From Gammaproteobacteria bacterium (lineage in GTDB: Bacteria; Pseudomonadota; Gammaproteobacteria; Ga0077536): a DNA stretch of 64,000 nucleotides. Location of the stretch: the NCBI GenBank assembly GCA_024235015.1, contig JACKNG010000003.1, forward strand, positions 280,397 through 344,396, given 5' to 3'. Of this stretch, positions 588-48,812 are shown one piece after another; the first letter of the stretch is position 1, and every line of letters starts with the position of its first letter. Below the pieces are notes generated by a model. It did no database searches. It saw only the letters and a list, made by a program, of their open reading frames with translations, and was not told the origin of the DNA. Position numbers and translations under genes: made by a program.

Positions 588-1739
588 GTGAAGCGGGTAT
601 CTACTTCTATCCTCACCGGGCTGGCGCTGCTGCTCGGTTGCCGTCTCGCCATGGCCGAGCTCCAGCCCGAGACCCTCACCGTCGGCAAGCTGCCGCCGGC
701 GAACCCACACCGCATCTACCTGAGCGACCTCGGCGGCCTCGGCCACGTCGTCGACGGCCGCATCCATCTCGTCGATGGCGACTCCTACAAGTATCTCGGC
801 GCGATCCCGGCGGCCATGTTCGCCCTCACCGCGCTGTCGCCCGATTCCAGCGAGATGTACCTCGCCACCACGTATTACACCAAGCTCAACCGCGGCAAGC
901 GCTTCGACCAGTTCGAGGTCTACGACACCGCCACGCTGAAGCTGAAGTCGGAGATCGAAATCCCGGCCAAGCACGCCCAGGCCCTGCCCTACAAGGGCAC
1001 CATGGTGTCGACTGCCGACGGCCGTTTCGTCATCATCCAGAACGCGACCCCGGCCAGCTCGGTGACGGTGGTCGATCGCAAGGCCGAGAAGTTCGTCACC
1101 GAGATCGAAACCCCCGGCTGCTGGATCATCCTGCCCGCGGCCTCCAACGCGCGTCGCTTCGCCACCCTCTGCGGCGACGGCACCCTGCTTACCGTCACCC
1201 TCGACGACGACGGCCAGGCGGTCAGCCAGCAGCGTTCGGCCAAGCTCTTCGACGCCGAGAAGGACCCGCTGTTCGTGCAGGCCGAGCACATCGGCGACAG
1301 CTACTACTTCGTCTCCTACGAGGGCAACCTGCACCAGATCAACGTCGGCGGCGACACCGCCGTGCTCGAGGACAAGTGGTCGCTGGTCGACGACGCCGAT
1401 CGCGCGGCGAAGTGGAAACCCTCCGGATACCAACTCACCGCCCTGCACGCACCGAGCAAGCGTTTCTACGTCGCCATGCACGACAACGCCTACGACGGCA
1501 GCCACAAGAACCCGGCCAAGGAAATCTGGGTGTTCGACCTCGCCACCAAGCAGCGCATCCAGCGCGCGCCCGGCTCGAACTCCGTCGCCATGGCACTGAG
1601 CAAGGAAGAGAAACCGGTGCTGTTCACCTACGACGGCATGACCGCCGAGTTCGTACGCTACGACACCGTGCCCGAGCTCAAGCCCGGCGCGCGCAGCAAG
1701 CCGGTCGGTGAATTCGCCGGCCTCGTGCAACTGCACTAA
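588..1739 (+). CDS. mauB: TTQ-dependent (methyl/aromatic) amine dehydrogenase heavy chain, beta-propeller
   Basis: GTG start after an AGGGAGG RBS; signal peptide VKRVSTSILTGLALLLGCRLAMA. The ORF 354..1739 translation resembles MADH/AADH large subunits (7-bladed propeller, e.g. YLSDLGGLGHVVDG, DTATLKLKSEIEIP). It is followed by mauE, mauD and mauA homologs. Confidence 0.8.
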   Translation: MKRVSTSILTGLALLLGCRLAMAELQPETLTVGKLPPANPHRIYLSDLGGLGHVVDGRIHLVDGDSYKYLGAIPAAMFALTALSPDSSEMYLATTYYTKLNRGKRFDQFEVYDTATLKLKSEIEIPAKHAQALPYKGTMVSTADGRFVIIQNATPASSVTVVDRKAEKFVTEIETPGCWIILPAASNARRFATLCGDGTLLTVTLDDDGQAVSQQRSAKLFDAEKDPLFVQAEHIGDSYYFVSYEGNLHQINVGGDTAVLEDKWSLVDDADRAAKWKPSGYQLTALHAPSKRFYVAMHDNAYDGSHKNPAKEIWVFDLATKQRIQRAPGSNSVAMALSKEEKPVLFTYDGMTAEFVRYDTVPELKPGARSKPVGEFAGLVQLH

Positions 1740-1748
1740 GCCGCGTCG

Positions 1749-2285
1749 ATGCCGGACATCGTCATCCAGCACGTGGCCGCGGCGACCCTCGCCATCGTGT
1801 TCATGGTCGGCGCGTGGCAGAAGCTGCGCGATCGCATCGGCTTCGAGATCGCGCTGGACAACTACGACCTGCTGCCGGCAGCGCTGGTCAAGCCGGTCGC
1901 CTGGCTGCTGCCCGCCTTCGAGTTCGCCACTGGCCTGGCCCTGGTCTCGCCGTGGCGCACGAACGGCGGCGTGATGGCCCTCCTGCTGCTCGGCTTCGTC
2001 ACCGCCGGCGTCGTCGTCAACCTGCTGCGCGGCCGGACCGACGTCGGCTGCGGCTGCGGCGGCATCGAGGACGAGCAATTGCTGTCGTGGGCACTGGTCG
2101 CGCGCAACGGCGTGCTCGCCCTCGGCGCCTGCGCCACCCTCGGCGCCGGCGTGGCGCGCCCGCTGGCCTGGCTCGATTACGTCACCGTGGTGGGCGCGAC
2201 GCTCAGCGCCTACGCGCTGTACGTGGCGGCCAACCAGCTCATCGCCAACCGGCCGCGCCTGGCGCGCCTGAGGCGTCCGGCATGA
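1749..2285 (+). CDS. mauE: methylamine utilization protein MauE-like membrane protein
   Basis: Polytopic membrane protein located 9 nt after the heavy-chain stop; conserved mau/aau position. Contains the CGCGG motif typical of MauE. Confidence 0.7.
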   Translation: MPDIVIQHVAAATLAIVFMVGAWQKLRDRIGFEIALDNYDLLPAALVKPVAWLLPAFEFATGLALVSPWRTNGGVMALLLLGFVTAGVVVNLLRGRTDVGCGCGGIEDEQLLSWALVARNGVLALGACATLGAGVARPLAWLDYVTVVGATLSAYALYVAANQLIANRPRLARLRRPA

Positions 2286-2872
2286 ACACCGCGCTTGCCA
2301 TCGCCGTCGGCGTGCTGTGGCTCGTGGTCATCGCGCTGGTCGTCGCGGTGTTCGCCCTGGCGCGCCAGATCGGCATCCTCTACGAACGCGTCGCGCCGAT
2401 GGGCGCACTGATGCTGGACGAAGGGCCCAAGGTCGGCGAGCAGGCGCCGCGCTTCACCCTCGCCACGCTCGCCGGCGGCAGCGTCAACCTCGGCCACCCC
2501 TCGCAGCGCGGCGAACTCCTGTTCTTCCTCTCGCCGACCTGCCCGGTGTGCAAGAAGCTCCTACCCGTGCTGCGCTCGATCGCCAAGGCCGAGGCCGACT
2601 GGCTCGACGTGGTGCTGGCCAGCGACGGCGACGAGCCCCGCCAGCGCGCCTTCTACAAGAAGGCCGGCCTGGAAGATTTCCCCTACGTGTTGTCACACGA
2701 CCTCGGCATGGCGTACAAGGTCGGCAAGCTGCCGTACGCCGTGCTGCTCGACGAAAGCGGTCAGGTGCGCGCCAAGGGTTTGATCAATTCGCGCGAGCAG
2801 CTCGAGAGCCTGTTCACGGCCAAGGAGCTCGGCGTCGAATCGATCCAGCAGTACCTGGGCAGCGGGGCGTGA
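2282..2872 (+). CDS. mauD: MauD-like thioredoxin-fold protein (TTQ biogenesis)
   Basis: ATGA overlap with mauE; N-terminal TM anchor then a CPVC thioredoxin motif (LSPTCPVCKKLLP). Typical MauD arrangement. Confidence 0.75.
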   Translation: MNTALAIAVGVLWLVVIALVVAVFALARQIGILYERVAPMGALMLDEGPKVGEQAPRFTLATLAGGSVNLGHPSQRGELLFFLSPTCPVCKKLLPVLRSIAKAEADWLDVVLASDGDEPRQRAFYKKAGLEDFPYVLSHDLGMAYKVGKLPYAVLLDESGQVRAKGLINSREQLESLFTAKELGVESIQQYLGSGA

Positions 2873-2960
2873 CCCGCGCGCAGGGTAGTGGAAGACGCCG
2901 GCGCTCGGCGACAAGAACGGTACAAGGTCTCGGAGACCCGAGGCGCGGGAGACGCGACTT

Positions 2961-3497
2961 ATGAGATGGTTTGACGACTTCTTCGAACGCCAGGCGCGCA
3001 ACGTCGCGCTGAAGACCTCACGCCGCAGCGCGCTGCTGCGCATCGGCCGCGTCATGGTCGGCACGGCCTTCCTGCTGCCGGTGCTGCCCTTCGATCGCCA
3101 GCCGCGTGCCCAGCACGGCGCCATCGACGACGGCAAGCACGACCCGCTCGACCCGGAGCGCTGCGAATACTGGCGCTACTGTTCGCTGGACGGCACGCTG
3201 TGCACCTGCTGCGGTGGCTCCATCACCACCTGCCCGCCGGGCAGCGAGCCATCCTCGGTGACCTGGATCGGCACCTGCCACAATCCCGAGGACGGCAAGG
3301 ACTACCTGGTCAGCTACAACGACTGCTGCGGTGGCGCCAGCTGCGGGCATTGCTTCTGCAACCAGAACGAGGGCGAACGCCCCGGCTACCGCATGGGCAT
3401 CCACAACGACATCAACTGGTGCATGGGCAACGAGAGCAGCGTCTACCACTGCACGGTGTCGGTGGTCCTCGGCGAGTCCGGCGCCAAGGCCGGCTGA
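2961..3497 (+). CDS. mauA: TTQ-dependent amine dehydrogenase light (small) chain with Tat signal
   Basis: Twin-arginine signal (SRRSALLRIGRV). Cys-rich mature domain (CTCCGGS...CCGGASCGHCFC...NWCMG) characteristic of MADH/AADH light chains that carry the TTQ cofactor. Confidence 0.85.
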   Translation: MRWFDDFFERQARNVALKTSRRSALLRIGRVMVGTAFLLPVLPFDRQPRAQHGAIDDGKHDPLDPERCEYWRYCSLDGTLCTCCGGSITTCPPGSEPSSVTWIGTCHNPEDGKDYLVSYNDCCGGASCGHCFCNQNEGERPGYRMGIHNDINWCMGNESSVYHCTVSVVLGESGAKAG

Positions 3498-3514: not shown

Positions 3515-3952
3515 ATGTCGGTTGCCGCGCGCCCGCTCCTCGTCGCGGGCGCGCTGGCGATCCTCCCGCTGGCCGTCTCGGCCCAGCCGCCCGAACACGA
3601 TTTCCTGCAGTTCTGCGTCGGCTGTCACCGCCTCGACGGCAGCGGCAGCGCGCAGAACGGCGTGCCCGACATGCGCGGCGTGGTCGGGCGCTTCCTGCGC
3701 GGGCCGACGGGGCGCGCCTTCGTCGTCCAGGTTGCCGGCGTCGCCCAGGCCCCGCTCGACGATGCCGCGATCGCGGCCCTGCTCAACTGGCTGCTGCCGC
3801 GCATGGATGCGGACGGCCTGCCGGACGATTTCCAACCCTATACCGCGGCCGAGGTCGCCCACCTGCGCGCAACCCGGCCGGGCGACGTCCCGGCCCTGCG
3901 CCAGCGCGCGCTCGACGAGGTTGCCGCGCTCGAGGCGGGCGCGGCCCGTTGA
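3515..3952 (+). CDS. small periplasmic monoheme c-type cytochrome
   Basis: Signal peptide MSVAARPLLVAGALAILPLAVSA and a single CVGCH heme-binding motif. Sits immediately downstream of the light chain, at the position of the cytochrome ORF in aau-type clusters. Confidence 0.65.
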   Translation: MSVAARPLLVAGALAILPLAVSAQPPEHDFLQFCVGCHRLDGSGSAQNGVPDMRGVVGRFLRGPTGRAFVVQVAGVAQAPLDDAAIAALLNWLLPRMDADGLPDDFQPYTAAEVAHLRATRPGDVPALRQRALDEVAALEAGAAR

Positions 3953-4040
3953 CGCCGCCCGCCCGCCTCGCGCACCCTCGGGGGCGGCGACGGTATCGCC
4001 TGCCATCCGCCATCCATCCGTTCACGGGGAGAAAGACCAC

Positions 4041-4916
4041 ATGACCGTCGAGTACATGGCCGCCATCCGCGCGCGCTACGAGAAGCTCGGTTACACGCCC
4101 TACCGCTGGTACGTGGCCGAGGATGCACCGCCCTTCGCGCCGCTGCGCCAGCCACTGGCCGCGAGCCGCCTGGGCCTGTTGTCGACCTCCGGCGCCTACG
4201 CCGTCGGCCAGTGCGCCTACCACTACAAGGACGACGCCGGCTTCCGCGCGATCCCGTCGGACACCGCACCGGAGGACCTCCGTTTCTCGCACATCACCGA
4301 GAACTACCTGGTCGACCCCAAGCAGGACCCGGACTGCATCTTCCCGCTCGGCACCCTGCGCGCGCTGGTCGCCGACGGCGCCGTCGGCGCGCTCGCCGAC
4401 GAGGTCTTCTCCTGCATGGGCGGGGTCTACTCGCAGCGCCGCGTACGCGAGGAAACGGCGCCGGCCCTGCTCGAGGCCTTCCAGGGACAAGGCGTCGACT
4501 GCGCGCTGCTGGTCGCGATGTGACCGGTGTGCCACCAGACCGTGTGTCTGGTCGCCCGTCACCTCGAAGCGCACGGCATTCCCACCCTCGTGCTGGGCTC
4601 GGCGCGCGACATCCTCGTCGCCGGGCGGCCGCCGCGCGCGGCCTTCGTCGACTACCCGCTCGGTCACAGCGCCGGCAAGCCACACGATCGCGCCGACCAG
4701 CGCAGCGTGGTGAGCGGCGCCCTGGCCGGCTTCGCCACCATCGACACGCCCGGCACCCTGATCGACCTGCCCAATGCCTGGGGCGACGACGCCTGGCGCA
4801 GCGAGGCCAGTTCGACCGAGGCCCGCGACACCCGCCAGCCGCGCGACCTCACCCCGCAATGGCAGCGCGCGGGCGACCGCGAGGCCGCCATTGCGAGCGG
4901 TGCCTGGGCACCGTGA
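4041..4916 (+). CDS. PrdB/GrdB-family (glycine/sarcosine/betaine/D-proline reductase protein B-like) selenoprotein candidate; in-frame TGA (Sec) at 4521-4523
   Basis: ATG at 4041 follows GGGGAGAAAG. ORFs 3522..4523 and 4527..4916 are in the same frame, separated by one TGA. TGA readthrough gives ...CALLVAM-U-PVCHQTVCLVARHLEAHGIPTLVLG, matching the PrdB/GrdB active-site region (U-x-x-C-H followed by ...GIPT). Upstream DPDCIFPLGTLRALVADG also resembles PrdB. A hairpin lies 10 nt downstream of the TGA. Confidence 0.55.
4534..4552 (+). promoter_or_regulatory. candidate bacterial SECIS-like stem-loop downstream of in-frame UGA
   Basis: A-CCAGAC-CGUGU-GUCUGG-U: a 7-bp stem with a 5-nt loop containing GU, starting 10 nt after UGA 4521-4523. 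A possible outer GGUG/CACC closing stem spans 4526-4563. Confidence 0.35.
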
Positions 4917-6494: not shown

Positions 6495-8102
6495 ATGCCC
6501 ACGACCTACGATGCCATCGTCATCGGCGCCGGAATCTCCGGCTTGTACTCGACCTACCGCCTGCGCGAACGCGGCCTGAGTGTGCACGGCTTCGAAGCCG
6601 GCAGCGACGTCGGCGGCACCTGGTACTGGAACCGCTACCCCGGCTGCCGTTTCGATTCCGAGAGTTACACCTACCAGTACTCGTTCTCCAAGGAACTGTT
6701 CGAGGAATGGCAGTGGAGCGAACACTTCGCCAGCCAGCCCGAGATCGAACGTTATGTCCATTACGTCGCCGACAAGTTCGATCTCAAGCGGCACTACGAC
6801 TTCGACGCGCGGGTCAAGACCGTGCATTTCGACGACGCCGACCGCATGTGGACCGTGACCGCCGAGGACGGGCGCAGTGCGCGGGCGCGCTTCATCGTCG
6901 CCGGCACCGGCCTGCTGTCGGCGTTCCAGTTGCCCGACTACCCCGGCGTGCACGATTTCGCCGGCCTCACCGTGCACACCGCGCGCTGGCCGAAAGAAGG
7001 CATCGACGTCAGCGGCAAGCGCGTCGGCATCATCGGCAGCGGCCCGACCGCGGTGCAGGTGATCCAGTCCATCGCCCCCGAGGTCGGCCACCTGACGGTG
7101 TTCCAGCGCACCGCCAACTGGTGCACCCCGCTGCGCAACCGTCCCATCACGGCCGAGGAGCAGCGCGACCTCACCGCCCACGCCGCCGAGATCATCGATC
7201 ACTGCAAGCAGACCTTCGCCGGCTTCATGCACGACATGGACCCGCGCGCCAGCACCGAGGTCGCCTCGAAGGAAGAGCGCTGGGCCAAGTACCAGGATCT
7301 CTACGAACGCGGCGGCTTCGCCCTGTGGTTCGCCAACTACAACGACCTCTTCACCAACCGCGCCTTCGCCGAGGAGGTCAGCGAGTTCCTCGCCGAGAAG
7401 ATCCGCCAGCGGGTCAAGGACCCGGCCACGGCCGAGAAGCTGATCCCGAAGAACCATCCCTACGGGACCAAGCGCCCGCCGGGCGAGAAGGACTTCTATG
7501 AGGCCTTCAACCGCGACAACGTCGACCTCGTCGACCTGCGCGCGACCCCCATCTCGCGCATCACCGCGGCCGGGGTAGAGACCAGCGAACAACTCTACGA
7601 ACTCGATATCCTGATCTACGCCACCGGCTTCCAGAGCCTGACCGGCGAGCTGCTGCGCATCGACATCCGCGGCGAGGGCGGCCTCGCCCTGGCCGACAAG
7701 TGGGCCGACGGGCCGCGCACCAACCTCGGCGTGCAGTTCGCCGGCTTTCCCAACTTCTTCGCCACCATGGGGCCCCACCACCCGGCGACGTTCTGCAACA
7801 TCACGCGCTGCGCGGAAACCACGGTCGACTGGATCGTCGACTGCATCGACTACATCCGCGCACACGGCTACACCTCGATCCAGCCCACGCCGGAAGCGGA
7901 GGAAGCCTGGACCCGGCACTGCTACGACTCGTCCAAGGGGCTGATCATCGACGAGATGCGTGACTCCTGGTTCTTCGGCAACAACAACCCGGAGAACAAG
8001 GGCGTGCCGCGCTTCCTGCTGTGGGCCGGCAGCGTCAGCGAGTTCCACCAGGTCTACCGCGACGTCGCCGCCGCCGGTTACCGCGGCTTCGAGTTCCGCT
8101 GA
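6495..8102 (+). CDS. Baeyer-Villiger monooxygenase (type I flavin-containing, cyclohexanone monooxygenase family)
   Basis: GGAGG RBS at 6481. Two Rossmann motifs (IVIGAGISGL, GIIGSGPTAVQ) and the BVMO fingerprint FxGxxxHxxxW region (FAGLTVHTARWP). Confidence 0.85.
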   Translation: MPTTYDAIVIGAGISGLYSTYRLRERGLSVHGFEAGSDVGGTWYWNRYPGCRFDSESYTYQYSFSKELFEEWQWSEHFASQPEIERYVHYVADKFDLKRHYDFDARVKTVHFDDADRMWTVTAEDGRSARARFIVAGTGLLSAFQLPDYPGVHDFAGLTVHTARWPKEGIDVSGKRVGIIGSGPTAVQVIQSIAPEVGHLTVFQRTANWCTPLRNRPITAEEQRDLTAHAAEIIDHCKQTFAGFMHDMDPRASTEVASKEERWAKYQDLYERGGFALWFANYNDLFTNRAFAEEVSEFLAEKIRQRVKDPATAEKLIPKNHPYGTKRPPGEKDFYEAFNRDNVDLVDLRATPISRITAAGVETSEQLYELDILIYATGFQSLTGELLRIDIRGEGGLALADKWADGPRTNLGVQFAGFPNFFATMGPHHPATFCNITRCAETTVDWIVDCIDYIRAHGYTSIQPTPEAEEAWTRHCYDSSKGLIIDEMRDSWFFGNNNPENKGVPRFLLWAGSVSEFHQVYRDVAAAGYRGFEFR

Positions 8103-8140
8103 GCCGCGCGCCGCTCAGCGCCGCGGCCGCACGACCGGCT

Positions 8141-9007
8141 TCAGTCGATACTGCTGGCGACGAACTCGCACAGGGCGTCGGTCAGCGGGCCGTCGGCCTC
8201 GCCCAGGCTCTCGATCACGTTGAAATGATGGCAATCGCCGAGTACCTGGTACTCGGCGCCCAGCCCGACCGCCTGGCAGGCGGCGACGTAGTCGCGCGAC
8301 TGGCGATGGAACTCCTCGGATTCGCCGCCGCCGACCGCCGCGATCAGCGGCGCGGCGGTGCGCGGCAGCTGCAGCTGCGGGCTCTCGCGCAATACCGTGT
8401 CACCGTCGAGCTGGATCATCGGCTGCAGCCACGAGTAGCGCAGCGGACGCAGGTCGAACAGGCCCGAGATCGCGTATCCCCCCTTGACGAGGTCCGGCGG
8501 CAGGCCGTACTCGCCGAGCCAGTCGGTGGCGAGCAGGCGCGCGACCTGGTGACCACCGGCGGAATGCCCGCTGACCACGATACGTTCGGGGTCGCCGCCG
8601 AAGTCTTGGACGTGGCGGTAGAGCCAGGCCAGCGCGGCGCGGCTCTGGCGGGTGATCTCACCGATCGAGACGGCCGGACACAGCGCGTAGTTGGTGACAA
8701 CGACGGTGTAGCCGCGCGCCACCGGCCCGGCGGCGACAAAGCTGAACTCCTTGGCGCTCAGGCGCCGCCAGTAACCGCCGTGGACGAACACCACCACCGG
8801 CGCATCCGGCCGCGCGGCGGGAAAGATGTCGAGTGTCTCGGCCAGGGTCGGACCGAAGGCGAGGTCGAGTTCGCAGGCGAGGGCGCTGCGCGTCCGCGCG
8901 CTGGCCTCGACGAAGAACTCCAGCCAGCGCCGCGCATCGGGCACCTGGCGCTCGATGTTGTACTGGGCGTCGATGTCGTCCTGGCTGGCGAAGTCGCGGT
9001 AGAGCAC
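8141..9007 (-). CDS. alpha/beta-hydrolase fold esterase/lipase
   Basis: HGGYW oxyanion motif (VFVHGGYWRR) and a GHSAGG nucleophile elbow. Convergent with the BVMO gene. Confidence 0.7.
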   Translation of the reverse strand: MLYRDFASQDDIDAQYNIERQVPDARRWLEFFVEASARTRSALACELDLAFGPTLAETLDIFPAARPDAPVVVFVHGGYWRRLSAKEFSFVAAGPVARGYTVVVTNYALCPAVSIGEITRQSRAALAWLYRHVQDFGGDPERIVVSGHSAGGHQVARLLATDWLGEYGLPPDLVKGGYAISGLFDLRPLRYSWLQPMIQLDGDTVLRESPQLQLPRTAAPLIAAVGGGESEEFHRQSRDYVAACQAVGLGAEYQVLGDCHHFNVIESLGEADGPLTDALCEFVASSID

Positions 9008-9092
9008 GCTGTCCTCCCGGGTTCGTGGCCCGACTAGACACCACCGCGAGCGCGTCCGTCAATCGGCGTCGCGCAGGCACCAGCCGGCGCCT

Positions 9093-11897
9093 TCACCCGG
9101 TATTGCGCAGGCCCGCGGCGATGCCGTTGATCGAGATGTGGATGCCGCGCTGCAGTCGTTCGCGCGCCGCCGCCGGCTCGCGGCCGTCGCGGTAACGCCG
9201 CAGCAGTTCGACCTGGAGGTGGTTGAGCGGGTCGAGGTAGGGAAAGCGATGAGCGATGGAACGCGCCAGGGCGGGGTTGGCCGCGAGGCGTTCCTCGGCG
9301 CCGCTGATCAGGCTGACCATGGCGTCGGTGCGCGTCCACTCGGCGCGGATGCGCTCGAAGATGCGCCGCGCGGCGCGGCGGTCCGGCACCAGTTCGACGT
9401 AACGCGCGGCGATGCCGAGGTCGGTCTTGGCTAGCACCATGTCGAGGTTGGAGACCAGCGCGCGGAAGAACGGCCAGCGCCGGTGCATGCGCTGCAGGCA
9501 CTCGACCCGCTCGGCGCGCTCGCCGGCGTCCAGCCAGGCCTCTACCGCGCTGCCGAAACCGTACCAGCCCGGCAACGCCACGCGGCACTGGCCCCAGGAG
9601 AAGCTCCAGGGGATCGCCCGCAGGTCCTCGATGGCGAAGGTGGCCTTGCGCGAGGCCGGCCGCGAGCCGATGTTGAGCGCCGCGATCTCGCTGATCGGCG
9701 TGGCCGCGGCAAAGTAGTCGACGAAGGCCGGGTCGTCGTAGACCAGGCGGCGGTAGGCCGCCATGCTCGCCGCGCTGATGGCGTCGGCGGCCTCGAGGAA
9801 GCGTTGCGGCGGGCGCTTGGTCGGGTGCAGCACGGTCGCCTCCAGGGTCGCCGCGACGAGCGTCTCGAGGTTGCGCCGGCCGATCTCGGGATGGGCGTAC
9901 TTGGCGCCGATCACTTCGCCCTGCTCGGTCAGCCGGATCTGGCCGTTCACGGTGCCGGGTGGCTGGGCCAGGATGGCCTGGTAGCTCGGCCCGCCGCCGC
10001 GCCCGACGGTGCCGCCGCGGCCGTGGAACAGGCGCAGGCGCAGGCGGTGGGAGCGCTCCAGCGGCTCGAACAACTCGACCAGGGCGACCTCGGCGCGGTA
10101 GAGCTCCCAGTTGCTGGTGAACACGCCGCCGTCCTTGTTGCTGTCGCTGTAGCCGAGCATGATTTCCTGCTCCGCGCCGCTGCGCCGGACCATGTCGAGC
10201 ACCCCGGGCAGGGCATAGAACTCGCCCATGATCTCGGCCGCGCGACGCAGGTCGGCGATGGTCTCGAACAGCGGCACCACGACCAGGTCGGCGACGGCGT
10301 CGCGGTCCAGGGTGCCGCGCACCAGCCCGGCTTCCTTCTGCAACACCAGCAGTTCGAGCAGGTCGCTGACGGCCTCGGTGTGGCTGATGATCGAATGGCG
10401 GATGGCGCCCGGCCCGTAGGCCGCGCGCGCCGCGGCAGCGGCCTCGAAGATCTCGAGTTCGCCGCTGGTCAACTCCGAGTAGCGCGCGCCGCGCACGCGC
10501 AGCGGCCGCGCATCGTTCAGCAGCGCCAGCAAGCAGGCCCGTCGGGCGTCCTCGTCGAGCGCCGGGTAATCGGCCTCGATGCGCGCCACGCGCAGCAGCT
10601 CGGCGACCACCGCCTCGTGCTTGTCCGAACTCTGGCGCAGGTCGAGGGTGGCGAGGTGGAAGCCGAACACCTGCGCGGCGCGCTTGAGCGGCGCGAGGCG
10701 CGGCGCGATCAGGGCCTCGGCATGGTGGGAGCGCAGCGAGGCGGCGATGACGTCGAGATCGGCGATGAATTCCTGCGCCGTCGCGTAGGGGTCCTGCGGC
10801 GCGACGGCGTGGCGCAGGGCCTCGGTGCCGGTGAGTTCGTGCAGGGTGGCGGCAAGCCGCGCGTAGATACCGACCAGGGCGCGGCGGTAGGGCTCGTCCT
10901 GGCGGTGCGCGCTGCGGTCGGGCGAGCGCGCGGCGAGCTTGCGCATGGCCGGGGTCACCGGCGAGAACAGGTTCGACATCGACAGCTCACTGCCGAGTTC
11001 GTGCACCTCGACCAGGTAGTGGCGCAGCGCGACCTCGGCCTGGCGCGCCAGGGCGCGGCGCAGGGTGGCCGCGGTGACGTTGGGATTGCCGTCGCGATCG
11101 CCGCCGATCCAGGCGCCCATGCGCAGGAAGCAGCCGATGTCGTGCCCGGGCAGGGCGCGCTCGACCTCGCGGTAGAGCCGCGGCACCTCGCGCAGGAAGG
11201 TCGCGTGGTAGTAGGACAGCGCGTTCTCGATTTCGTCGGCCACGGCGAGCTTGGCCGTGCGCAGCATGCGGGTCTGCCACAGCTGGGTGATGCGGGCACG
11301 GATGAGTGCCTCGTTGTCGTCGCGCTCGCGCGCGGCGACGAGGTGATCGCGGGCTTCGATGAGCCCGGCGATGGCGCGCTCGGCATCGAGGATGCTCTTG
11401 CGCTGGACCTCGGTCGGGTGGGCGGTGAGGACGGGCGAGATGTAGGCCTCGCGCAGCAGCGCGGCGATGTCGCCGGCGCGTTCGCCGCTGCGCTGCAGGC
11501 GCTCGAAGGCCAGGGCGAGCGAACCGTCCTGCAGCCGCCCGCCGCGCTCGTGGACGTGGCGACGGCGCACGTGGTGGCGATCCTCGGCGATGTTGGCGAG
11601 GTGCGAGAAATAGCTGAAGGCGCGGATCACGCTGACCGTCTGGTCGACCGAGAGATTCTTGAGCAGGCGATCGAGGGTCCGCCCGGCGCGCTTGTCCGCC
11701 TTCAGGCGATAGGCCACCGAGAGCTGGCGTACGCGCTCGATCAATTCGAACGCGGCACGCCCTTCCTGCTCGCGGATGACGTCGCCGAGGATGCGCCCGA
11801 GCAGGCGGATGTCCTCGACCAGCGGGCGGTTCTTGGCCGCGGCATCGTGATCGCCACCGGCGCCGCGTGCCTGCCCTCCACTTCGTCCCCGTGCCAT
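9093..11897 (-). CDS. ppc: phosphoenolpyruvate carboxylase
   Basis: About 930-aa protein ending ...[10 protein letters not shown], with conserved [18 protein letters not shown] and [12 protein letters not shown] motifs. Start chosen at the ATG 6 nt after GGAGG (11897); the ORF extends spuriously to 12017. Confidence 0.9.
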
Positions 11898-12037
11898 CGT
11901 CATCCTCCCGCCGTTACCGCTCGAGTGCGGACTATGCTGCACTGCGCAATGCGACGTTTCAACCGTGCGCGTCCGCATCGCGGCGGGAAACGCATAGAAT
12001 CCCGCGCGTTCAACCAACGACGGGGAGGTATCGACAC

Positions 12038-12799
12038 ATGGCTCTGCTCGACCAACGCGTGGTGCTGGTCACCGGCGGCAGCACCGGCATCGGCCGCGCC
12101 ACCGCGCGCATCCTGGCCAGCGAGGGCGCGACGGTGATCATCGCCGACGTGCAGGACGACGAGGGCGCGAACACGGTCGCGGCGATCACGCAGTCCGGCG
12201 GCCACGCCGAGTACCTGCACGTCGACGTCGGTGACTTCGCCGCGGTCGAGGCCGCGGTGGCGACCCTCGTCGAGCGTCACGGTGCCCTGCACGGCGCCTT
12301 CAACAACGCCGGTATCGAGGGCCCCACCGCCAAGATCCTCGACCTCGCCCCGGCCGAGTGGGAACGCGTCATCCGCGTGAATCTCACCGGCGTCTACCAC
12401 TGCATGAAAGCCGAGATCGCGCAGATGGTGAAACAGGACGGCGGCGGCAGCATCGTCAGCACGGCCTCCGCGGCCGGCCTCATCGGCATCCCCGGCGCGG
12501 CCGGCTACAACTCGGCCAAGCACGGCGTGGTCGGCCTGACCAAGACCGTCGCGCTCGAGTACGCGGCGCGCAACATCCGCGTCAACGCGGTGTGCCCGGG
12601 CTTCATCGAGACGCCCATGCTCGGCCGCGTGACCGAGGCCAGCGCCAAGATCCGCGAACAGATGATCGGCGCGACGCCGATGAAACGGGTCGCCCAGCCG
12701 GAGGAAATCGGCGACGCCGTGGCCTGGCTGCTGTCGGCCAGGTCGAGCTACGTCACCGGTGTCGCCCTGCCGGTCGACGGCGGCTGGGTCGCCCAGTAA
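12038..12799 (+). CDS. short-chain dehydrogenase/reductase (SDR) family oxidoreductase
   Basis: [20 protein letters not shown] Rossmann motif, NNAG, and the catalytic S...YNSAKHG (YxxxK) motif. Confidence 0.85.
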
Positions 12800-12809
12800 C
12801 GCGGACTTC

Positions 12810-13718
12810 TCACCGGCGTTCGTCGCGCCCTCGCCGCGCGGCGCGCGCCTCCCAGCCCATCACGCCGATCCCGCTCGCCGCGATGAGGACCATGCCGGCC
12901 GCGCTGAGGCCATCCGGCACCTGGCCGAAGAACCACCAGCCGGTCAGGCCCGACCACCACAGCTGCAGGTAGCTGAGCGGGGCGAGGAAGGACGCACCGG
13001 CCCAGAAGAAGGCGCGCAGCAGCAGCCACTGGCCGAGCGCGCCGAGCACACCGAGGGCCAGCAGCGTGGCCACCTGGCCGCTGCCGAGTGCATCCGGCCA
13101 GCCGCCCCAGGCATCCTGCCAGGGCAGCAGCACGGCCGACAGCAGCGCCGCGCTGAGCGCCGAGATGAACAGCGTCGTCATTGCCTCGTCGGCCACGGCG
13201 AGACGCCGGGTGAGCAACTGGAAGGCGACGTTGCAGGCGATCGCGAGCACGCCGAAGGCGATGCCGAGCGGCGCCAGCGTGCCGCCCGGGCGCACCACCA
13301 CCAGCATGCCGAGGAAACCGGCCACGGCGCCGACCCAACGCACGCGGCCGACGCTCTCGCCGAGCAGCGGCCCGGCCAGCAGCATCACCACCAGCGGGCC
13401 GACGAAGATAATGGCCGTGGCCTCGGCCTGCGGCAGGTAACGCAGCGAGGACACGAAGGTGAGACTGAAGGCGCCGAGCACGAGCCCGCGCGCGACCTGC
13501 TCGAACGGCCGCCGCGTACGCCACAACCGCCCGCGCAGGCGCGGTCCCAGCACGGCCAGCATCAACACCACCTGGGTGCCGTGGCGCACCGCGGCGATCA
13601 GCGGGATGCCCATGTCGGCCGCCAGCCACTTGCTGCTGGCATCGAGCACGGCGAGGAAAACCTGCGCACCGAGCAGGAAGGCGAGCGCGCGCAACGGGCT
13701 GAACGAGGGGGTGGACAC
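12810..13718 (-). CDS. DMT-superfamily (EamA/RhaT-like) transporter
   Basis: About 10 TM helices with two EamA-like halves. Confidence 0.65.
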   Translation of the reverse strand: MSTPSFSPLRALAFLLGAQVFLAVLDASSKWLAADMGIPLIAAVRHGTQVVLMLAVLGPRLRGRLWRTRRPFEQVARGLVLGAFSLTFVSSLRYLPQAEATAIIFVGPLVVMLLAGPLLGESVGRVRWVGAVAGFLGMLVVVRPGGTLAPLGIAFGVLAIACNVAFQLLTRRLAVADEAMTTLFISALSAALLSAVLLPWQDAWGGWPDALGSGQVATLLALGVLGALGQWLLLRAFFWAGASFLAPLSYLQLWWSGLTGWWFFGQVPDGLSAAGMVLIAASGIGVMGWEARAARRGRDERR

Positions 13719-13806
13719 GGGCGGATTCTACGCGAGCCCCGTCGCCGCCGCCGCCCCGCGCCGCGGCGACCTCACGTGCGGCGCTACGCCGCGACCGCCG
13801 CCGGCA

Positions 13807-15213
<1,407 letters not shown>

Positions 15214-15362
15214 GACGGGCCCCAGCATACACCGCGGGCGTCCGCCCCGAATCCGCTGCGCCGCTCGCGGTCTGCGGCGGGCATGGATTCTGGCTACACT
15301 GCGCTGCCCGCGTCGCGCGGCCCCGGCCGCGGCACGCCCGATCCCACGAGCCGGAGCAGACG

Positions 15363-18526: not shown

Positions 18527-20656
18527 TCAGGACGCCTTCGCCACTTCGACCAGGTTGTCGGAGAAGGTCGGCGCATGCCCCATGTCGACGAACTCCGCGC
18601 TCGACACCACGTTGACCGTGCCGCGGTTGAGCTGGCGCCAGTAGCCGAGGGTGGCGACGACGATGCCTGGGTTGACGTCGTCGGAGATCTCGGCGACCGC
18701 TTCGAAGGCGCCGCGCTCGTTGAACACCCGCACGGCCTCGCCGTCGCCGATGCCACGACGCGCCGCGTCGACGGCGTTGATGAGCAGGAACTGCTCGCCC
18801 TGGCCCTTCAGCTTGCCGGCCATGTTGGCGTAGCAGGAGTTGAGAAAGCCGTGACTCTTGGGCGAGACGATGTTGAGAGGAAAGCGCGCGGCGAGCGCCG
18901 GGTTGCTGGCCGGGCTCTCGCGCGGCGGCACGTAATCGGGCACGGCGTCGAGCGGCTCGCCGCCCTGCATGTCGGTGTACATCTGGCGGAACGGCGGCGC
19001 GACGAAATTGCCGCCGGCGGCGATGCTCGACTCGAATTCACACTTGCCGGACGGCGTGGGAAAGTTGCCTTCGCGATGCGGCGCGCGATCGTCCGCCGTG
19101 CCGAGCGCGAGGCGGACGAAACCCCGCTCGCGCAGGCTGGCGAGGTCGAAACCGGCGCAGGCCGGTGCCGACCAGTCGACGAACCGTTCCAGGCACTCGG
19201 CGTCCGACCATTGGAACTCGGGCTCGTCGTAGCCCATGCGCGCGGCCAGGCGGCGGAAGATCTCGCGGTTGGACAACACCTCGCCCGGCGGCTCGGCGCA
19301 GGCCGCGTTCCAGGTCAGGTAGTTGTGGCCCCAGGACAGGATGATGTCCTCCATCTCCGCACCCATGGCCGCGGGCAGGAGGATGTCGGCGTAGCGCGCG
19401 ACGTCGGTGACGAAATGCTCGGCGACGACGAGAAAGAGATCCTCGCGTTCGAGTCCGCGCACGATCTTGTCGCCCTCGGGCGCCTGGGTGACCGGGTTCG
19501 AGTTCCAGCACATCAGCGACAGGATCGGCGGGTCGAGCGGGATCTCGCCGGTGAGCAGGCGGCCGAGTTGGAGGTTGTTGACCGCGCGCGTGCCGGGCGG
19601 GATCCAGTCCGGCCGGCAGATGGCGTCGAAGTCGTAGGGATGCTCCCACACCGGCATGGCGAGGATGCCGCCGCCGACGTGGCGCCAGGCGCCGGTCAGG
19701 GCCGGCAGGCAGCACACCGCGCGCACCGTCTGGCCGCCACCGTGATGGCGCTCCAGGGCGACGCCGATGCGGATGGCGGCGGGCTGGGTGCCGGCGTACT
19801 CGTGGGCGAGGCGGCGGATGTCGGCGGCCGGCACCCCGGTGATGCCCTCGGCCCACTCCGGCGTGCGCGCCTGCGCCCGCGCGGCCAGCGCGTCGTAGCC
19901 CTGCGTGTAGCGCTCGACGTAGTCGCGATCGACCAGGCCGTCCGCGATCAGGACGTGGATCAGGGCCATGGCCAGCGCGCCGTCGGTACCCGGCCGCGGC
20001 GCGATGTGCCAGTCGGCCTCGCGCGCCGTGCGCGAACGGTAGGCATCGATGACGACGACCTTCGCTCCCGCCTTCTGCGCATCCTTGACGACGTGCCAGT
20101 GGTGCAGGTTGGTGCTGACGCTGTTGCAGGCCCAGATGACGATGAACTTCGCGTGGCGGAAGGACTCGGGGTCCACACCGCCACTCGGGCCGTAGGTCAT
20201 CAGCCAGGCGGTCGCCGCGCCCTCGCCGCAGAAGGTGCGTTCCATCACCGTCGCGCCCATGCGGTTGAAGAAGGCGTCGCCGCCGTTCAGCCCGTGCACC
20301 AGGCCCTGGTGGCCGAGGTAGCTGTAAGGCGCGATGGCCTGCGGCCCGTGCGCGGCGATGATCGCCTGCCAGCGCGCGGCGATGGTGTCGAGCGCCTCGT
20401 CCCACGAGATGCGCGCGAACTCGGCGCTGCCCTTGGGCCCGACCCGCTTGTGCGGGTAGAGCAGGCGCTCGGGATGGTAGTGCCGCTTCTCGTAGTCGCG
20501 CAGCTTGACGCACAGGCCGCCGCGGGTGAGCGGGTGGTCCGGGTTGCCGCGCACGCCGACCAGGCGGCCGTCCTCGACCTCGAACTGCATCGAGCAGGTG
20601 TCGGGACAATCGTGCGGGCAGCCGCCGTGGTGGATGGTGCGCGTGCTCGTCGTCAT
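18527..20656 (-). CDS. molybdopterin-dependent oxidoreductase (MopB superfamily) with N-terminal Cys cluster
   Basis: N-terminal CPHDCPDTC...C 4Fe-4S-type motif followed by molybdopterin dinucleotide-binding domains. Standalone, with no partner subunits in the window; substrate is unknown. Confidence 0.75.
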   Translation of the reverse strand: MTTSTRTIHHGGCPHDCPDTCSMQFEVEDGRLVGVRGNPDHPLTRGGLCVKLRDYEKRHYHPERLLYPHKRVGPKGSAEFARISWDEALDTIAARWQAIIAAHGPQAIAPYSYLGHQGLVHGLNGGDAFFNRMGATVMERTFCGEGAATAWLMTYGPSGGVDPESFRHAKFIVIWACNSVSTNLHHWHVVKDAQKAGAKVVVIDAYRSRTAREADWHIAPRPGTDGALAMALIHVLIADGLVDRDYVERYTQGYDALAARAQARTPEWAEGITGVPAADIRRLAHEYAGTQPAAIRIGVALERHHGGGQTVRAVCCLPALTGAWRHVGGGILAMPVWEHPYDFDAICRPDWIPPGTRAVNNLQLGRLLTGEIPLDPPILSLMCWNSNPVTQAPEGDKIVRGLEREDLFLVVAEHFVTDVARYADILLPAAMGAEMEDIILSWGHNYLTWNAACAEPPGEVLSNREIFRRLAARMGYDEPEFQWSDAECLERFVDWSAPACAGFDLASLRERGFVRLALGTADDRAPHREGNFPTPSGKCEFESSIAAGGNFVAPPFRQMYTDMQGGEPLDAVPDYVPPRESPASNPALAARFPLNIVSPKSHGFLNSCYANMAGKLKGQGEQFLLINAVDAARRGIGDGEAVRVFNERGAFEAVAEISDDVNPGIVVATLGYWRQLNRGTVNVVSSAEFVDMGHAPTFSDNLVEVAKAS

Positions 20657-20873: not shown

Positions 20874-21953
20874 GTGAACCAGACGGACTTGAGCTTACTC
20901 GACCAGATGCGCATCACGGACCTCGAGTTCGAACGGCGCAAGGCGTACATCGGTTTCGATGATGCCGACGTCGCCGCCCTGGTCGAAGTGCGCCGGATCG
21001 TGCTCGAAGTCTGCGACGATCTCGTCGAGCGCTTCTACGCCGCGCAGACCCGCGTGCCGGAGATCGCGCTGCTCATCGGCGATGCCGACACCCTGCGCCG
21101 CCTGGCCGCGGCCATGGGGCAATACGTGGTCGAACTGTTCAGCGGCCTCTACGATCTCGAGTACGTCAGCGACCGCCTGCGCATCGGTCTCGTGCACAAG
21201 CGTATCGGCGTCGATCCCACGCTCTACCTGTCGGCCATGCACCAGCTGCGCCGCCTGCTCGGCGAGACCATCGACGACGGCGTGGACGACCCTGCCCTGC
21301 GCCACGCCGCGCAGGTGGCGCTGGACAAGCTCTTCACGCTCGATACCACCCTGGTATTCGAGACCTACGTGCGCATGCTGGTGGCCGAGGTCGAGGAGTC
21401 GCGCAACCGCGCCGAGCGCTACGCGCAGGAACTCGAGGAGAAGGTGCGCGAACGCACGCGGCAGCTCGAGGAACTGGCGCACACCGACGCCCTCACCGGC
21501 TTGCTCAACATGCGCCACATCGATCACGCCCTGACCCGCGCGCTGCGCGGGGCCCAGCGCCGCGCCGAACCCGTGACCGTGATCTTCATCGACATCGACG
21601 ATTTCAAGCAGATCAACGACCACGAGGGCCATCCGTTTGGTGACGAGGTGCTGCGCAGCGTCGCCACGATCCTGCAACGGGTGCTGCGCGCCGACGACAA
21701 CGCGTTCCGCTACGGCGGCGACGAGTTCTGCCTGATCCTGCCGAACTGCGACGAACAGCAGGCCATGGCCCAGATCGTCACGCGCATCGAAGCCGAGCTC
21801 GAAACCGTGAACGACGCTGTCAGCCTCAGCTTCGGCGTGGCCCAGACCGGCCCCGCGCGTTACGTCAGCGGTGACGCCCTGCTGGCCGAAGCCGACCGCC
21901 TCATGTACGCCGCCAAGCGCGCGCACAAGCGGGACGGCGACGCGACGCCCTGA
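20874..21953 (+). CDS. globin-coupled sensor diguanylate cyclase (protoglobin-like N-terminus + GGDEF)
   Basis: N-terminal sensor-globin features (proximal-His region LVHKRIGVDPTLYL). C-terminal GGDEF domain with an intact RYGGDEF active site and an RxxD-like I-site. GTG at 20874; alternative ATG at 20907. Confidence 0.75.
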   Translation: MNQTDLSLLDQMRITDLEFERRKAYIGFDDADVAALVEVRRIVLEVCDDLVERFYAAQTRVPEIALLIGDADTLRRLAAAMGQYVVELFSGLYDLEYVSDRLRIGLVHKRIGVDPTLYLSAMHQLRRLLGETIDDGVDDPALRHAAQVALDKLFTLDTTLVFETYVRMLVAEVEESRNRAERYAQELEEKVRERTRQLEELAHTDALTGLLNMRHIDHALTRALRGAQRRAEPVTVIFIDIDDFKQINDHEGHPFGDEVLRSVATILQRVLRADDNAFRYGGDEFCLILPNCDEQQAMAQIVTRIEAELETVNDAVSLSFGVAQTGPARYVSGDALLAEADRLMYAAKRAHKRDGDATP

Positions 21954-22253: not shown

Positions 22254-22679
22254 TCAGAGCTTGCGGAAGGCCTCTGCCGCGATCTGACCGATCTCCTCGT
22301 CCTGCTGGTAGGTACCACCGCTCTGGCCCAGCGCGCCGAGCATGCTGCCGTCGTCGGCGCGCAGCACGATGCCGCCCCACACCGGCGTGTAGTGCGGATC
22401 GCAGAACCAGGTGATCTCGCGCCGCTCGTCGCCGAGCGACATGTCGAACAGGCGGGTCTTGAGCACGCGCGTGTCCATCTGCCACTTGACCGCGGTGTAG
22501 GCCTTGTTGTGACTCATGCGCGCGTTCAGCGCCGAGGCGCCGTCCATGCGCGCGAGGTGAATGAGGTCGCCGCCGGCATCGACGACGGCCGCGGCGAACT
22601 TGATGCCGCGGCTGCCTGCCTCATTCAACATGGTGTCGACGATGAGGCGTGCCGCGTCGAGATCGAGCTTGTTCGCCAT
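22254..22679 (-). CDS. GlcG/HbpS-like heme-binding protein (DUF336)
   Basis: MANKLDLDAARLIVDTMLNEAGSRGIKFAAAVVDAGGDLIHLARMDGA... matches the GlcG/DUF336 fold family. Confidence 0.7.
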   Translation of the reverse strand: MANKLDLDAARLIVDTMLNEAGSRGIKFAAAVVDAGGDLIHLARMDGASALNARMSHNKAYTAVKWQMDTRVLKTRLFDMSLGDERREITWFCDPHYTPVWGGIVLRADDGSMLGALGQSGGTYQQDEEIGQIAAEAFRKL

Positions 22680-24797: not shown

Positions 24798-25110
24798 GGG
24801 ATCTCCGGTCGGTTGCAGGCGGCGTGTCTCGGCGGCGCGTAGTGTGCCATCACCGGCCGCGACGAGGCGAACCTGCCGGCCCTGCCACGCCGCCCGCTCG
24901 CGGCCAGCAGGATCCGCTCGAGTACGGCGCTGGCCCGGTCCCGCGCGGCACGGCGTTTCACCGGGCGATGCGCAGCGGCGCAGCCGCGAATCCCGTATAG
25001 ACTGCACATCCCGGCCGACGCGCAGCTTGCCACCGGGCAGACGCTCACCGATTCGGATCGGGCTTGGCGGGCGGACCGTGACGGCGCCGCGCACATCGAG
25101 CGGAGCAACC

Positions 25111-26424
25111 ATGTTCGAACTCAACCCACAGTCCCTCACCGGGCTGATGCTGGTCGGTACGGCCTGGGCCTTCCTGCGCGCCGACTCGCGCTCCGGCACC
25201 AGCCGGGCGCTGGCCGTCGGCCTCGCCGCGGCCGGCGCCGCGGTCTTCGCCAACCTCGTGCTCGCGCGCCTGCTCGCCAACGGTCCGTTGCCGGCCTGGG
25301 CTGGCGCGCTGGTCGTGCCCGAAGTGGTCGCCTTCTGCGCGGTGTTCGAGTGGTCGCTGCGCGTGCGTGCGACCATTCCCGCCGGGCAGTTGCGGACCCG
25401 CGGCGGCGACGTCGCCCTGCGCCTGGCACAGGCCCTGGTGCTGCTGTACGGCATCAACGGCTGGCGCCAGCCCGAGTTGCGCGTGCGGGATTTCTTCGGT
25501 GGCCTGTCCGGGCCCGGCATCTGGTCGAACGAGGTGCTGAGCCTGTTCGTCGCCCCGCTCACCGTCGCCATGGTGTTGTGGACGCTGTCGATGCTGCTCT
25601 GTCTCAACCGCAACCCCGATCGCGCCGAGCGTGTACGCCTGGTGGCCTTCCTCGTCGCCATCCCGATCCTCGCCGTCGGCCTCGTGCTGCCGCTCGACAT
25701 CTCGCCCGCCGCGACCGTGGTCGGGGTCAGCATCCTGCTCGGTGGCGCCTTGCGCCACGCCGAGGTGCGTGGCCGCCAGGGCCAGTTCGTCGGCCGCTTC
25801 CTGTCGCCGCAGGTGGCGGCGCTGGTCAACCGCCACGGCCTGCGCAGCGCGGTGCCGGACGAACGCCGCGAAGTCTCCATCGTCAGTGTCGACCTGCGCG
25901 GCTTCACCGCGTTTGCCGCGGCGCGCGGCTCGGACGCCGTCATCGCCCTGCTGCGCGACTACTACGACGCGGTCGGCGCGGCGGTGCACGAGTTCGAAGG
26001 CACCATCAAGGATTATGCCGGCGACGGCGTGCTGGTCATCGTCGGCGCGCCACTACCGCTGCCGGACCATGCCGCGCGCGCGGTGGCGCTGGCGCGGCGC
26101 ATCATCGAGGTGGTCACGCCGGTGACCCGCACGCATTGCCCGGACGGCACGCTCGGGGTCGGCGCCGGCGTCGCCAGCGGCGCGGTCGCGGTCGGCATCG
26201 TCGGCGGCCAGGGACCGTTGGAATACGCCGCGGTGGGACCGGCGGTCAACCTCGCCGCCCGCCTCGGCCAGCGCGCGCGGGCCGGCGAGTTCCTCGTCGG
26301 CGCCGACACCGTGGCGCTGCTCGACGGCGACCGCGAACAGCTCGAGGCGCGCGAGGCGGTCAGCCTCAAGGGCTACGACGCACCGGTCGCGGTGTTCGGC
26401 CGCAGCCTGCTGTCGGTGACTTGA
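25111..26424 (+). CDS. membrane-anchored class III adenylate/guanylate cyclase
   Basis: N-terminal domain of about 6 TM helices, then a CYC domain (VSIVSVDLRGFTAF...DYAGDGVLVIVGAPL...). Confidence 0.7.
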   Translation: MFELNPQSLTGLMLVGTAWAFLRADSRSGTSRALAVGLAAAGAAVFANLVLARLLANGPLPAWAGALVVPEVVAFCAVFEWSLRVRATIPAGQLRTRGGDVALRLAQALVLLYGINGWRQPELRVRDFFGGLSGPGIWSNEVLSLFVAPLTVAMVLWTLSMLLCLNRNPDRAERVRLVAFLVAIPILAVGLVLPLDISPAATVVGVSILLGGALRHAEVRGRQGQFVGRFLSPQVAALVNRHGLRSAVPDERREVSIVSVDLRGFTAFAAARGSDAVIALLRDYYDAVGAAVHEFEGTIKDYAGDGVLVIVGAPLPLPDHAARAVALARRIIEVVTPVTRTHCPDGTLGVGAGVASGAVAVGIVGGQGPLEYAAVGPAVNLAARLGQRARAGEFLVGADTVALLDGDREQLEAREAVSLKGYDAPVAVFGRSLLSVT

Positions 26425-29911: not shown

Positions 29912-31611
<1,700 letters not shown>

Positions 31612-31615
<4 letters not shown>

Positions 31616-48746: not shown

Positions 48747-48812
48747 CGATAGTCCTCCACTAACGGTCCGCAACGGTTGTGGCCGCAGGCCGCGGCCGTC
48801 GCCGTGCTGCAT

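Follow-up and report, generated by a model that had tools for sequence, protein, structure and literature searches.

An in-frame UGA codon in the middle of an otherwise open coding sequence raises a double question: is it a stop or is it decoded as selenocysteine (Sec), and, if the latter, what does the protein do? The question arises at positions 4041-4916 of a 64,000-nucleotide stretch of DNA, referred to below as the window, from a gammaproteobacterium of the GTDB lineage Ga0077536 (assembly GCA_024235015.1, contig JACKNG010000003.1, positions 280,397 to 344,396 of the forward strand). Two open reading frames (ORFs) in this region, 3522..4523 and 4527..4916, share a common frame and have the TGA at 4521-4523 as their sole separator, and 4041-4916 translates as 291 codons interrupted by a single stop (...DCALLVAM*PVCHQTVCLVARHLEAHGIPT...). 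This is just as described in an earlier note made from the sequence (the original prediction), which proposed a selenoprotein of the PrdB/GrdB reductase family encoded next to an amine dehydrogenase operon. The analysis reported here confirms with high confidence both this observation and the selenoprotein reading. The whole explanation that we favour, a cytoplasmic selenoprotein with Sec/Cys-based reductive chemistry encoded by an accessory gene of an aau-type amine dehydrogenase operon, is, taken jointly, quite likely.

The case for Sec comes in the first place from relatives. A homolog search over 5.8 billion proteins returned 1759 relatives of the window protein, and a locus scan limited to one genome per GTDB species gave 80 loci. 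Codon 161 is TGA in 78 of these and TGC or TGT in the other two, never TAA or TAG, and the protein sequence 3' of it is conserved in all 80, a pattern far beyond chance. Among the closest relatives of the window gene the Sec form is overwhelmingly predominant. Full-length homologs (~292 residues, 45-67% identity), colinear with the window protein over 96-100% of length, have a Cys in the TGA column. This Cys is part of a motif, MCPVCHQ, that was found in 13 full-length homologs (alignment A1) and is nearly invariant in 53 sequences, in which C164, H165 and Q166 do not vary at all. The closest relatives (70-90% identity) are annotated as 160-residue proteins ending in ...LLVAM and have thus been cut at the same TGA codon; in all relatives examined the gene is called as a 160-residue and a 129-residue ORF. 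The GTG at 4527, two codons past the TGA, varies between GTG, GTC, GTT and GTA in relatives, which makes a separately started C-terminal protein unlikely. At the other end, the start of the gene is the ATG at 4041, the 3522 start merely prolonging the open frame upstream; the N-terminal part is called as exactly 160 residues in relatives, and GGAG-type motifs precede the start in most of the relatives linked to aau genes. Elsewhere in the window TGA is an ordinary stop, which ends the light-chain gene, the cytochrome c gene and the PrdB-like gene itself. A scan of the window for further TGA-interrupted frames with high G+C at third codon positions found no second selenoprotein candidate, but this crude scan also missed the PrdB-like gene.

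The second line of evidence is a hairpin that begins 10 nucleotides (nt) after the TGA. According to a Sargasso Sea selenoproteome survey (PMC1088965), the bacterial selenocysteine insertion sequence (SECIS) is a stem-loop immediately 3' of the UGA whose apical loop is small and has a G in it, and the window hairpin has both this placement and a G-bearing apical loop. Seventy-nine TGA forms, 73 of them distinct, were aligned; across the distinct sequences 89.5% of the cells in the stem are paired, a figure that drops to 21-44% once the 3' partners are shifted along. Compensatory double changes occur at two pairs (C-G to U-A in 17 sequences, G-C to A-U in five); doubly changed cells number 23, compared with a shuffled mean of 6.4, and none of 500 shuffles reaches 23. 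Pairing is complete (7/7) in 64 of 78 TGA forms and 6/7 in the other 14, while the five Cys forms pair at 3, 3, 4, 4 and 6 of the seven positions, the stem being degraded in four of them. The 5-nt loop has two conserved Gs, of which the one at position 2 shows at least 90% conservation and the one at position 4 never varies. The C-G to U-A compensation couples a synonymous His codon (CAC/CAT) with a Val/Ile replacement (GTC/ATC), so that the RNA structure is kept at the protein's expense. Over window positions 4533-4553 (alignment A2) the Sec forms read H-Q-T-V-x-L-(V/I), whereas H-Q-S/T-x-x-(I/M), with pairing lost, is the reading of four of the five Cys forms and the fifth (locus L045) keeps the Sec-type sequence together with 6/7 pairs. 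The hairpin is therefore convincing through comparative data and not through the fold of a single sequence. Conserved, covarying and kept by the UGA forms, it has the look of a bacterial SECIS bound by SelB, and the data on it show cleanly how a SECIS element constrains a protein sequence.

Genes for Sec metabolism adjoin members of the PrdB-like family in two genomes. In locus L062, tRNA-Sec, selB and selA form a compact set alongside the PrdB-like gene, and in L067 a gene for a fused Pyr_redox_2-SelD protein is divergent from it (Table 1).

To judge from profile and pairwise matches, the window protein belongs to a stand-alone PrdB-like branch of the GrdB/PrdB reductase superfamily. Its best curated match is the PrdB model TIGR04483 (E 1.8e-35, 122.5 bits, equivalog cut-off 300), against which a Cys homolog, P0004, scores 132 bits, also below the cut-off. 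A family-profile search of a representative library of 1.84 billion proteins gave 2627 relatives at E<=1e-3 and 143 at E<=1e-30, with ten labelled. A genuine PrdB (P0303), used as a positive control, scores 453 bits on TIGR04483 and sits behind a 601-residue PrdA (PF09338) in locus L096. BLASTP aligns the window protein to it with 28% identity over 199 residues (E 2e-32) and places U161, C164 and H165 opposite C151, C154 and H155, the catalytic motif being in register. Similarity to the GrdB/F/H models is weak and lies around Sec (E 1e-7 to 1e-5), query residues 94-229 aligning to GrdB profile positions 280-422, with scores of 16.8 bits for PF07355 (GRDB; cut-off 22) and 25.3 bits for TIGR01918 (cut-off 65.45). 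The PF07355 match stops at profile position 345 of 347, right before Sec, in the window protein and genuine PrdB alike, and precomputed PF07355 matches are present on several close relatives. The TIGR04483 and BLASTP matches thus bear out the superfamily homology claimed in the original prediction, and the Cys homologs together with the alignment to genuine PrdB do the same for its claim that the TGA coincides with the Sec/Cys of a U-x-x-C-H motif.

How might such a protein work? SelB and Sec-tRNA(Sec) would read the UGA to yield one polypeptide instead of a 160-residue and 129-residue pair. An AlphaFold2 model of P0004, which is 64% identical to the window protein, was made with a 52-sequence alignment (pLDDT, the predicted local distance difference test score, 93.7; pTM, the predicted template modelling score, 0.93). 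Residue 161 lies in this model between a strand (154-158) and a helix (162-177), at the helix N-terminus, where redox-active C/U-x-x-C pairs usually sit. This position, capping a helix right after a β-strand, suggests that Sec161 and Cys164 could form a selenenylsulfide redox couple. As in its homologs PrdB and GrdB, the selenolate may attack an electrophilic carbon beside a carboxyl or thioester and reductively cleave a C-heteroatom bond, after which Cys164 would resolve the selenoether and a thioredoxin-type system would re-reduce the Se-S bond. The protein is predicted to be cytoplasmic, its N-terminus being without a signal-peptide-like hydrophobic stretch, and its gene, as the putative last gene of an aauB-E-D-A-cytochrome c operon, is probably expressed with amine catabolism.

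The operon in question is a tryptophan tryptophylquinone (TTQ) amine dehydrogenase cluster with its cytochrome, which Pfam matches place directly upstream of the PrdB-like gene (Table 1), where the original prediction had it. The cluster is of the aromatic amine dehydrogenase (AADH) type, the heavy chain scoring 280 bits against the Alcaligenes faecalis enzyme versus 110 against methylamine dehydrogenase, and the light chain 179 bits against the AADH small subunit. A MauG-family di-haem peroxidase was found neither in the window nor within the +/-10 kb over which related loci were annotated. The aau cluster of A. faecalis reportedly runs aauB-E-D-A, then a small mono-haem cytochrome c, and has no mauG. 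A block consisting of heavy chain, MauE, MauD, light chain, cytochrome c and PrdB-like genes occurs in 17 of the 80 species loci, and it is still present where identity has dropped to 58% in the selenoprotein and to 36-42% in MauE. Its genes are co-oriented, with gaps of 5-91 nt in 16 of the 17 linked loci that were measured, window included; the 88-nt gap before the PrdB-like gene (3953-4040) holds no terminator-like site and no unusual structure, and the genes 3' of the PrdB-like gene differ between linked loci. Taken together, these features make co-transcription likely. One listed ORF within the cluster, 2317..2964, was rejected as a wrong-frame, Arg/Gly-rich artefact of 70% G+C that has no Pfam match. 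The idea that orf-3 of the A. faecalis aau cluster might be PrdB-like was also set aside: Ralstonia soli (L092), whose cluster is the nearest one sampled in Burkholderiales, has an unrelated 143-residue gene at that place. As a separate observation, a DUF1302/DUF1329 outer-membrane pair lies directly 3' of the AADH-type cluster in Denitromonas ohlonensis (L091:7017-10190), and the window has such a pair at 49119-51993, 45 kb from its amine dehydrogenase cluster.

Table 1. Positions of the features discussed, in the window and in two related loci (L062 and L067).
Sequence	Feature	Position	Strand	Remarks
Window	Amine dehydrogenase heavy chain, AADH type (aauB-like)	588..1739	+	Pfam Me-amine-dh_H E 8.9e-40; start GTG 588, Shine-Dalgarno GGGAGG
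Window	MauE-like membrane protein	1749..2285	+	Pfam MauE E 1.2e-25
Window	MauD-like thioredoxin-fold protein	2282..2872	+	Pfam Redoxin / AhpC-TSA; ATG overlaps mauE stop (ATGA)
Window	TTQ light chain (aauA-like)	2961..3497	+	Pfam Me-amine-dh_L E 3.3e-53; twin-arginine-type leader SRRSALL
Window	Small mono-haem c-type cytochrome, one CxxCH	3515..3952	+	Pfam Cytochrom_C E 1.2e-4; gene directly 5' of PrdB-like gene
Window	Shine-Dalgarno-like GGGGAG	4026..4031	+	9 nt before ATG 4041; read from sequence
Window	PrdB-like selenoprotein gene	4041..4916	+	291 codons including Sec161; stop TGA 4914-4916
Window	In-frame UGA, codon 161, read as selenocysteine	4521..4523	+	Aligns with Cys of homologs
Window	Cys164 codon, presumed resolving Cys of U-x-x-C; then His165	4530..4532	+	From alignment
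Window	SECIS-like hairpin	4534..4552	+	Stem 4534-4540 / 4546-4552, 7 bp; loop CGUGU 4541-4545
Window	Weaker lower stem of hairpin	~4529-4532 / 4554-4557	+	From fold of window sequence
L062	PrdB-like gene	10001-10867	+	Compact Sec locus alongside
L062	tRNA-Sec	10887-10982	-	20 nt past PrdB-like stop
L062	Thioredoxin-reductase-like gene	11008-11910		Between tRNA-Sec and selB
L062	selB	11921-13852		SelB β-barrel and winged-helix domains
L062	selA	13849-15249		TIGR00474, 574 bits
L067	Pyr_redox_2-SelD fusion, 739 residues (AIRS/AIRS_C)	7657-9876		Divergent from PrdB-like gene at 10001

Several points weigh against the explanation as a whole and have to be set beside the evidence above. The ~50 window ORFs scanned include no SelA, SelB or SelD (Pfam), a tRNA search of the 64 kb found nothing, and tblastn of the window gave no match with the L062 selA, selB and thioredoxin-reductase-like genes or with E. 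coli SelD; with selA, selB, selC and selD all missing from the window, we infer Sec decoding in the source organism from its relatives. Folded by itself, the window sequence gives a marginal hairpin (free energy -18.7 kcal/mol, z -2.2, five of 200 shuffles as stable), and Rfam returned no SECIS family, either at gathering thresholds over the whole window or at E up to 10 over 4490-4620, where the sole match is a chance snoRNA. The 7-bp stem-loop 10 nt past the TGA holds up as originally described in position and stem, but the Rfam SECIS models do not match it. Co-transcription with the amine dehydrogenase genes is probable on gene spacing. Fold searches found only generic Rossmann or periplasmic-binding-protein-like α/β similarity, and no solved structure related by sequence was found. 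Finally, C-X cleavage and thioredoxin recycling are read across from 28%-identical homologs that require a pyruvoyl subunit, and a thioredoxin-reductase-like neighbour of the PrdB-like gene is seen in one locus only (L062).

The link with amine oxidation invites a stronger proposal, namely that the selenoprotein is a dedicated part of the AADH system, which either reduces or detoxifies a product of periplasmic amine oxidation or feeds reducing equivalents to MauD/MauE in folding the six-disulfide light chain. Conservation of the block in 17 loci, down to the level of selenoprotein identity given above, would be consistent with such a role, and so would the short co-oriented gaps while genes further 3' differ. 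However, 63 of the 80 species loci have no adjacent mau/aau genes (contig ends leave some of them unscorable), and the linked loci fall into two neighbouring groups of the selenoprotein tree, so that linkage tracks lineage. Moreover, three AADH-type clusters of other lineages, including those of D. ohlonensis and R. soli, keep the small cytochrome c and have no PrdB-like gene, the PrdB-like protein lacks a signal peptide while the dehydrogenase and cytochrome are periplasmic, and in Burkholderiales the PrdB-like gene follows an acyl-CoA dehydrogenase gene instead. We regard a dedicated role as unlikely. The link to the AADH cluster is real but restricted to some gammaproteobacterial lineages, and the PrdB-like gene is an accessory, not an obligatory, part of the AADH-type operon. 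The originally suggested role in handling an amine-derived product is weakly supported, since the linkage is lineage-confined and non-reciprocal and joins a cytoplasmic protein to a periplasmic enzyme.

The Burkholderiales loci provide a second context, common to Sec and Cys forms. Here the PrdB-like gene is the last gene of an IclR-acyl-CoA dehydrogenase-PrdB-like array, with a 12-nt gap (L093:557-5879, L095:675-5864), alongside a divergent family III CoA-transferase gene and a gene for a YhdH/AcuI-family acrylyl-CoA reductase (TIGR02823, 355 bits, above cut-off). In L094 (3751-5891) the PrdB-like gene and a CoA-transferase gene share 4 nt, and other loci have enoyl-CoA hydratase/nitroreductase or YebC/Hsp33 genes as neighbours. 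The Burkholderiales contexts hint at a CoA-thioester-related substrate, and the two operon contexts together favour catabolic intermediates, amine-derived or CoA-activated acids, over free proline or glycine. Being tight and independent of each other, these contexts also point to a bolder idea, which is that the stand-alone PrdB-like selenoproteins of aerobic Proteobacteria might be a distinct enzyme class that carries out pyruvoyl-free C-heteroatom cleavage on catabolic carboxylate or CoA-thioester intermediates, not on free amino acids. This idea is speculative, and we would sooner expect it to fail than to hold; if it were true, a top ocean selenoprotein would have been mislabelled in function for twenty years. 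In any event, the two contexts are concrete, testable leads to the substrate of an abundant selenoprotein.

A different proposal is that the protein is a general thioredoxin-like selenol/thiol redox protein that reduces disulfides or peroxides and is no C-heteroatom reductase. The U-x-x-C at a helix N-terminus after a β-strand would suit such a protein, DsbA, nitroreductase, glutathione S-transferase and Hsp33 genes are neighbours in some loci, and the Sargasso Sea survey classes the PrdB UxxC family with thiol-dependent redox proteins (PMC1088965). However, conservation covers the whole 220-residue PrdB core and not the motif alone, invariant charged and aromatic residues far from the motif (AYHYKDD, SCMGGxYSQR, DYPLGH) suggest a specific small-molecule site, and the tight operons hold catabolic enzymes. 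These features make a general redox role doubtful.

It is very improbable, in turn, that the protein is a genuine PrdB subunit of a Stickland-type D-proline (or glycine/betaine/sarcosine) reductase. True, its best NCBIfam match is PrdB, and relatives carry JGI and NCBI labels such as 'D-proline reductase (dithiol) PrdB' and 'glycine/sarcosine/betaine reductase selenoprotein B family protein'. However, its score is 122.5 bits where the cut-off is 300 and genuine PrdB reaches 453, and it carries extra N- and C-terminal regions of ~29 and ~60 residues. Furthermore, P0303 has PrdA upstream, while the PrdA/GrdE, GrdA and PrdC families are found neither among the ~50 window ORFs nor in the annotated related loci; the absence of PF09338 from the window also agrees with the 'without PrdA' of the original prediction. 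Genes of the window for an Fe/Mn superoxide dismutase, for flavin and luciferase-like monooxygenases and for c-type cytochromes point to an aerobic host. Because of the extra termini, the missing PrdA/GrdE/GrdA/PrdC and the aerobic-looking host, the protein is not a PrdB equivalog and, having no pyruvoyl partner (PrdA/GrdE), it is not D-proline reductase. Least probable of all, to the point of being scarcely credible, is that the TGA is a true stop or marks a split gene, pseudogene or assembly error, leaving only a 160-residue protein and perhaps a separate one of 129 residues, since the split calls in every relative and the GTG two codons past the TGA in the window are outweighed by a TGA in 78 independent species with TAA or TAG in none, Cys forms that are single polypeptides, a GTG that is not conserved and a hairpin, covarying at amino-acid cost, that follows only the TGA forms.

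Other features of the window deserve a brief mention. Its only Rfam match at gathering level, 5_ureB_sRNA (105 bits, 31180-31466, + strand), is antisense within the urease α-subunit gene (29912-31615, - strand) and probably reflects conservation of urease coding sequence, not a small RNA. The latter gene is part of a nitrogen-scavenging region (28001-48824) that holds the structural and accessory genes of urease, urea/amide-type ATP-binding cassette transporter genes in two sets and a formamidase gene (47520-48824). A 1051-residue ORF on the - strand (22788-25943) has ACAS_N and AMP-binding matches only from residue 429, residues 1-428 being without a Pfam match; its start may be over-extended or two genes may be fused, and in L007 a separate LCM methyltransferase gene lies beside the counterpart of this ORF. 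Lastly, a protoglobin-GGDEF gene (20874-21953, + strand), encoding a haem-based sensor diguanylate cyclase, is found near a molybdopterin oxidoreductase gene (18527-20656) and an HbpS-like gene (22254-22679).

How new, then, is the cytoplasmic selenoprotein that we favour? What is new is a member of a long-catalogued selenoprotein family, and the Sec call amounts to the routine mending of a split made by automatic annotation. In the surveys, 'Proline reductase PrdB' with its UxxC motif ranks third in abundance among Sargasso Sea selenoprotein families (42 Sec and 1 Cys form; PMC1088965), and 235 Sec and 110 Cys forms are given for the Global Ocean Sampling (GOS) data, where many ocean samples have the family in their top three (PMC2398784). 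Tara Oceans metagenome-assembled genomes and surface-ocean single-cell genomes contain relatives of the window gene, and Vineibacter terrae (locus L078) is a cultured carrier. The window gene most probably belongs to this Sargasso/GOS family, to which it was matched by the published description and not by sequence. Recent reviews list the family simply as D-proline reductase (PMC9312934, PMC13188914), and a literature search on PrdB-like function or context in aerobes, or on a link between mau/aau genes and selenoproteins, found nothing relevant. The original remark that orphan forms are poorly understood is therefore fair as regards function and context, on which no paper was found, but as a selenoprotein the family is well catalogued.

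Comparison with known systems helps to place the window protein. With the D-proline reductase PrdB of Clostridium sticklandii and C. difficile it shares a homologous core of 220 residues, a motif in register and a UGA-encoded Sec, but it differs in its additional terminal regions, in a gene that stands alone without the PrdA pyruvoyl subunit, PrdC or PrdDEF as neighbours, and in an aerobic-looking proteobacterial host. GrdB, GrdF and GrdH (TIGR01918, PF07355) are more distant, with weak but significant similarity around the Sec region; the window protein has no counterpart of the first ~280 residues of the 431-435-residue profiles, falls under every curated cut-off and comes without GrdA, GrdE or GrdC/D. 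The A. faecalis aau cluster shows the same order as the window, from heavy chain through MauE, MauD and light chain to cytochrome c with no MauG, whereas a PrdB-like gene after the cytochrome is seen only in some gammaproteobacterial lineages and not in the aau-type clusters sampled in Burkholderiales and Rhodocyclales. The closest parallel is the marine PrdB family (Zhang, Fomenko and Gladyshev 2005; Zhang and Gladyshev 2008), which has the same UxxC, pfam07355 assignment, excess of Sec forms and marine relatives; the surveys take its function from clostridial PrdB and, in their passages on PrdB, mention neither the absence of PrdA nor gene context. A family abundant in the surface ocean is thus still labelled 'proline reductase' although it is without the pyruvoyl partner that defines this enzyme. 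Finally, FarB/FarE, which are GrdB/GrdE-like and have been proposed to carry out reductive C-F cleavage of fluoroacetate in Synergistota (PMC10838667), differ from the window gene in that a GrdB-like protein is paired, in an anaerobe, with a GrdE-like partner, but they show that the chemistry of this superfamily can reach C-alpha-heteroatom bonds beyond those of amino acids.

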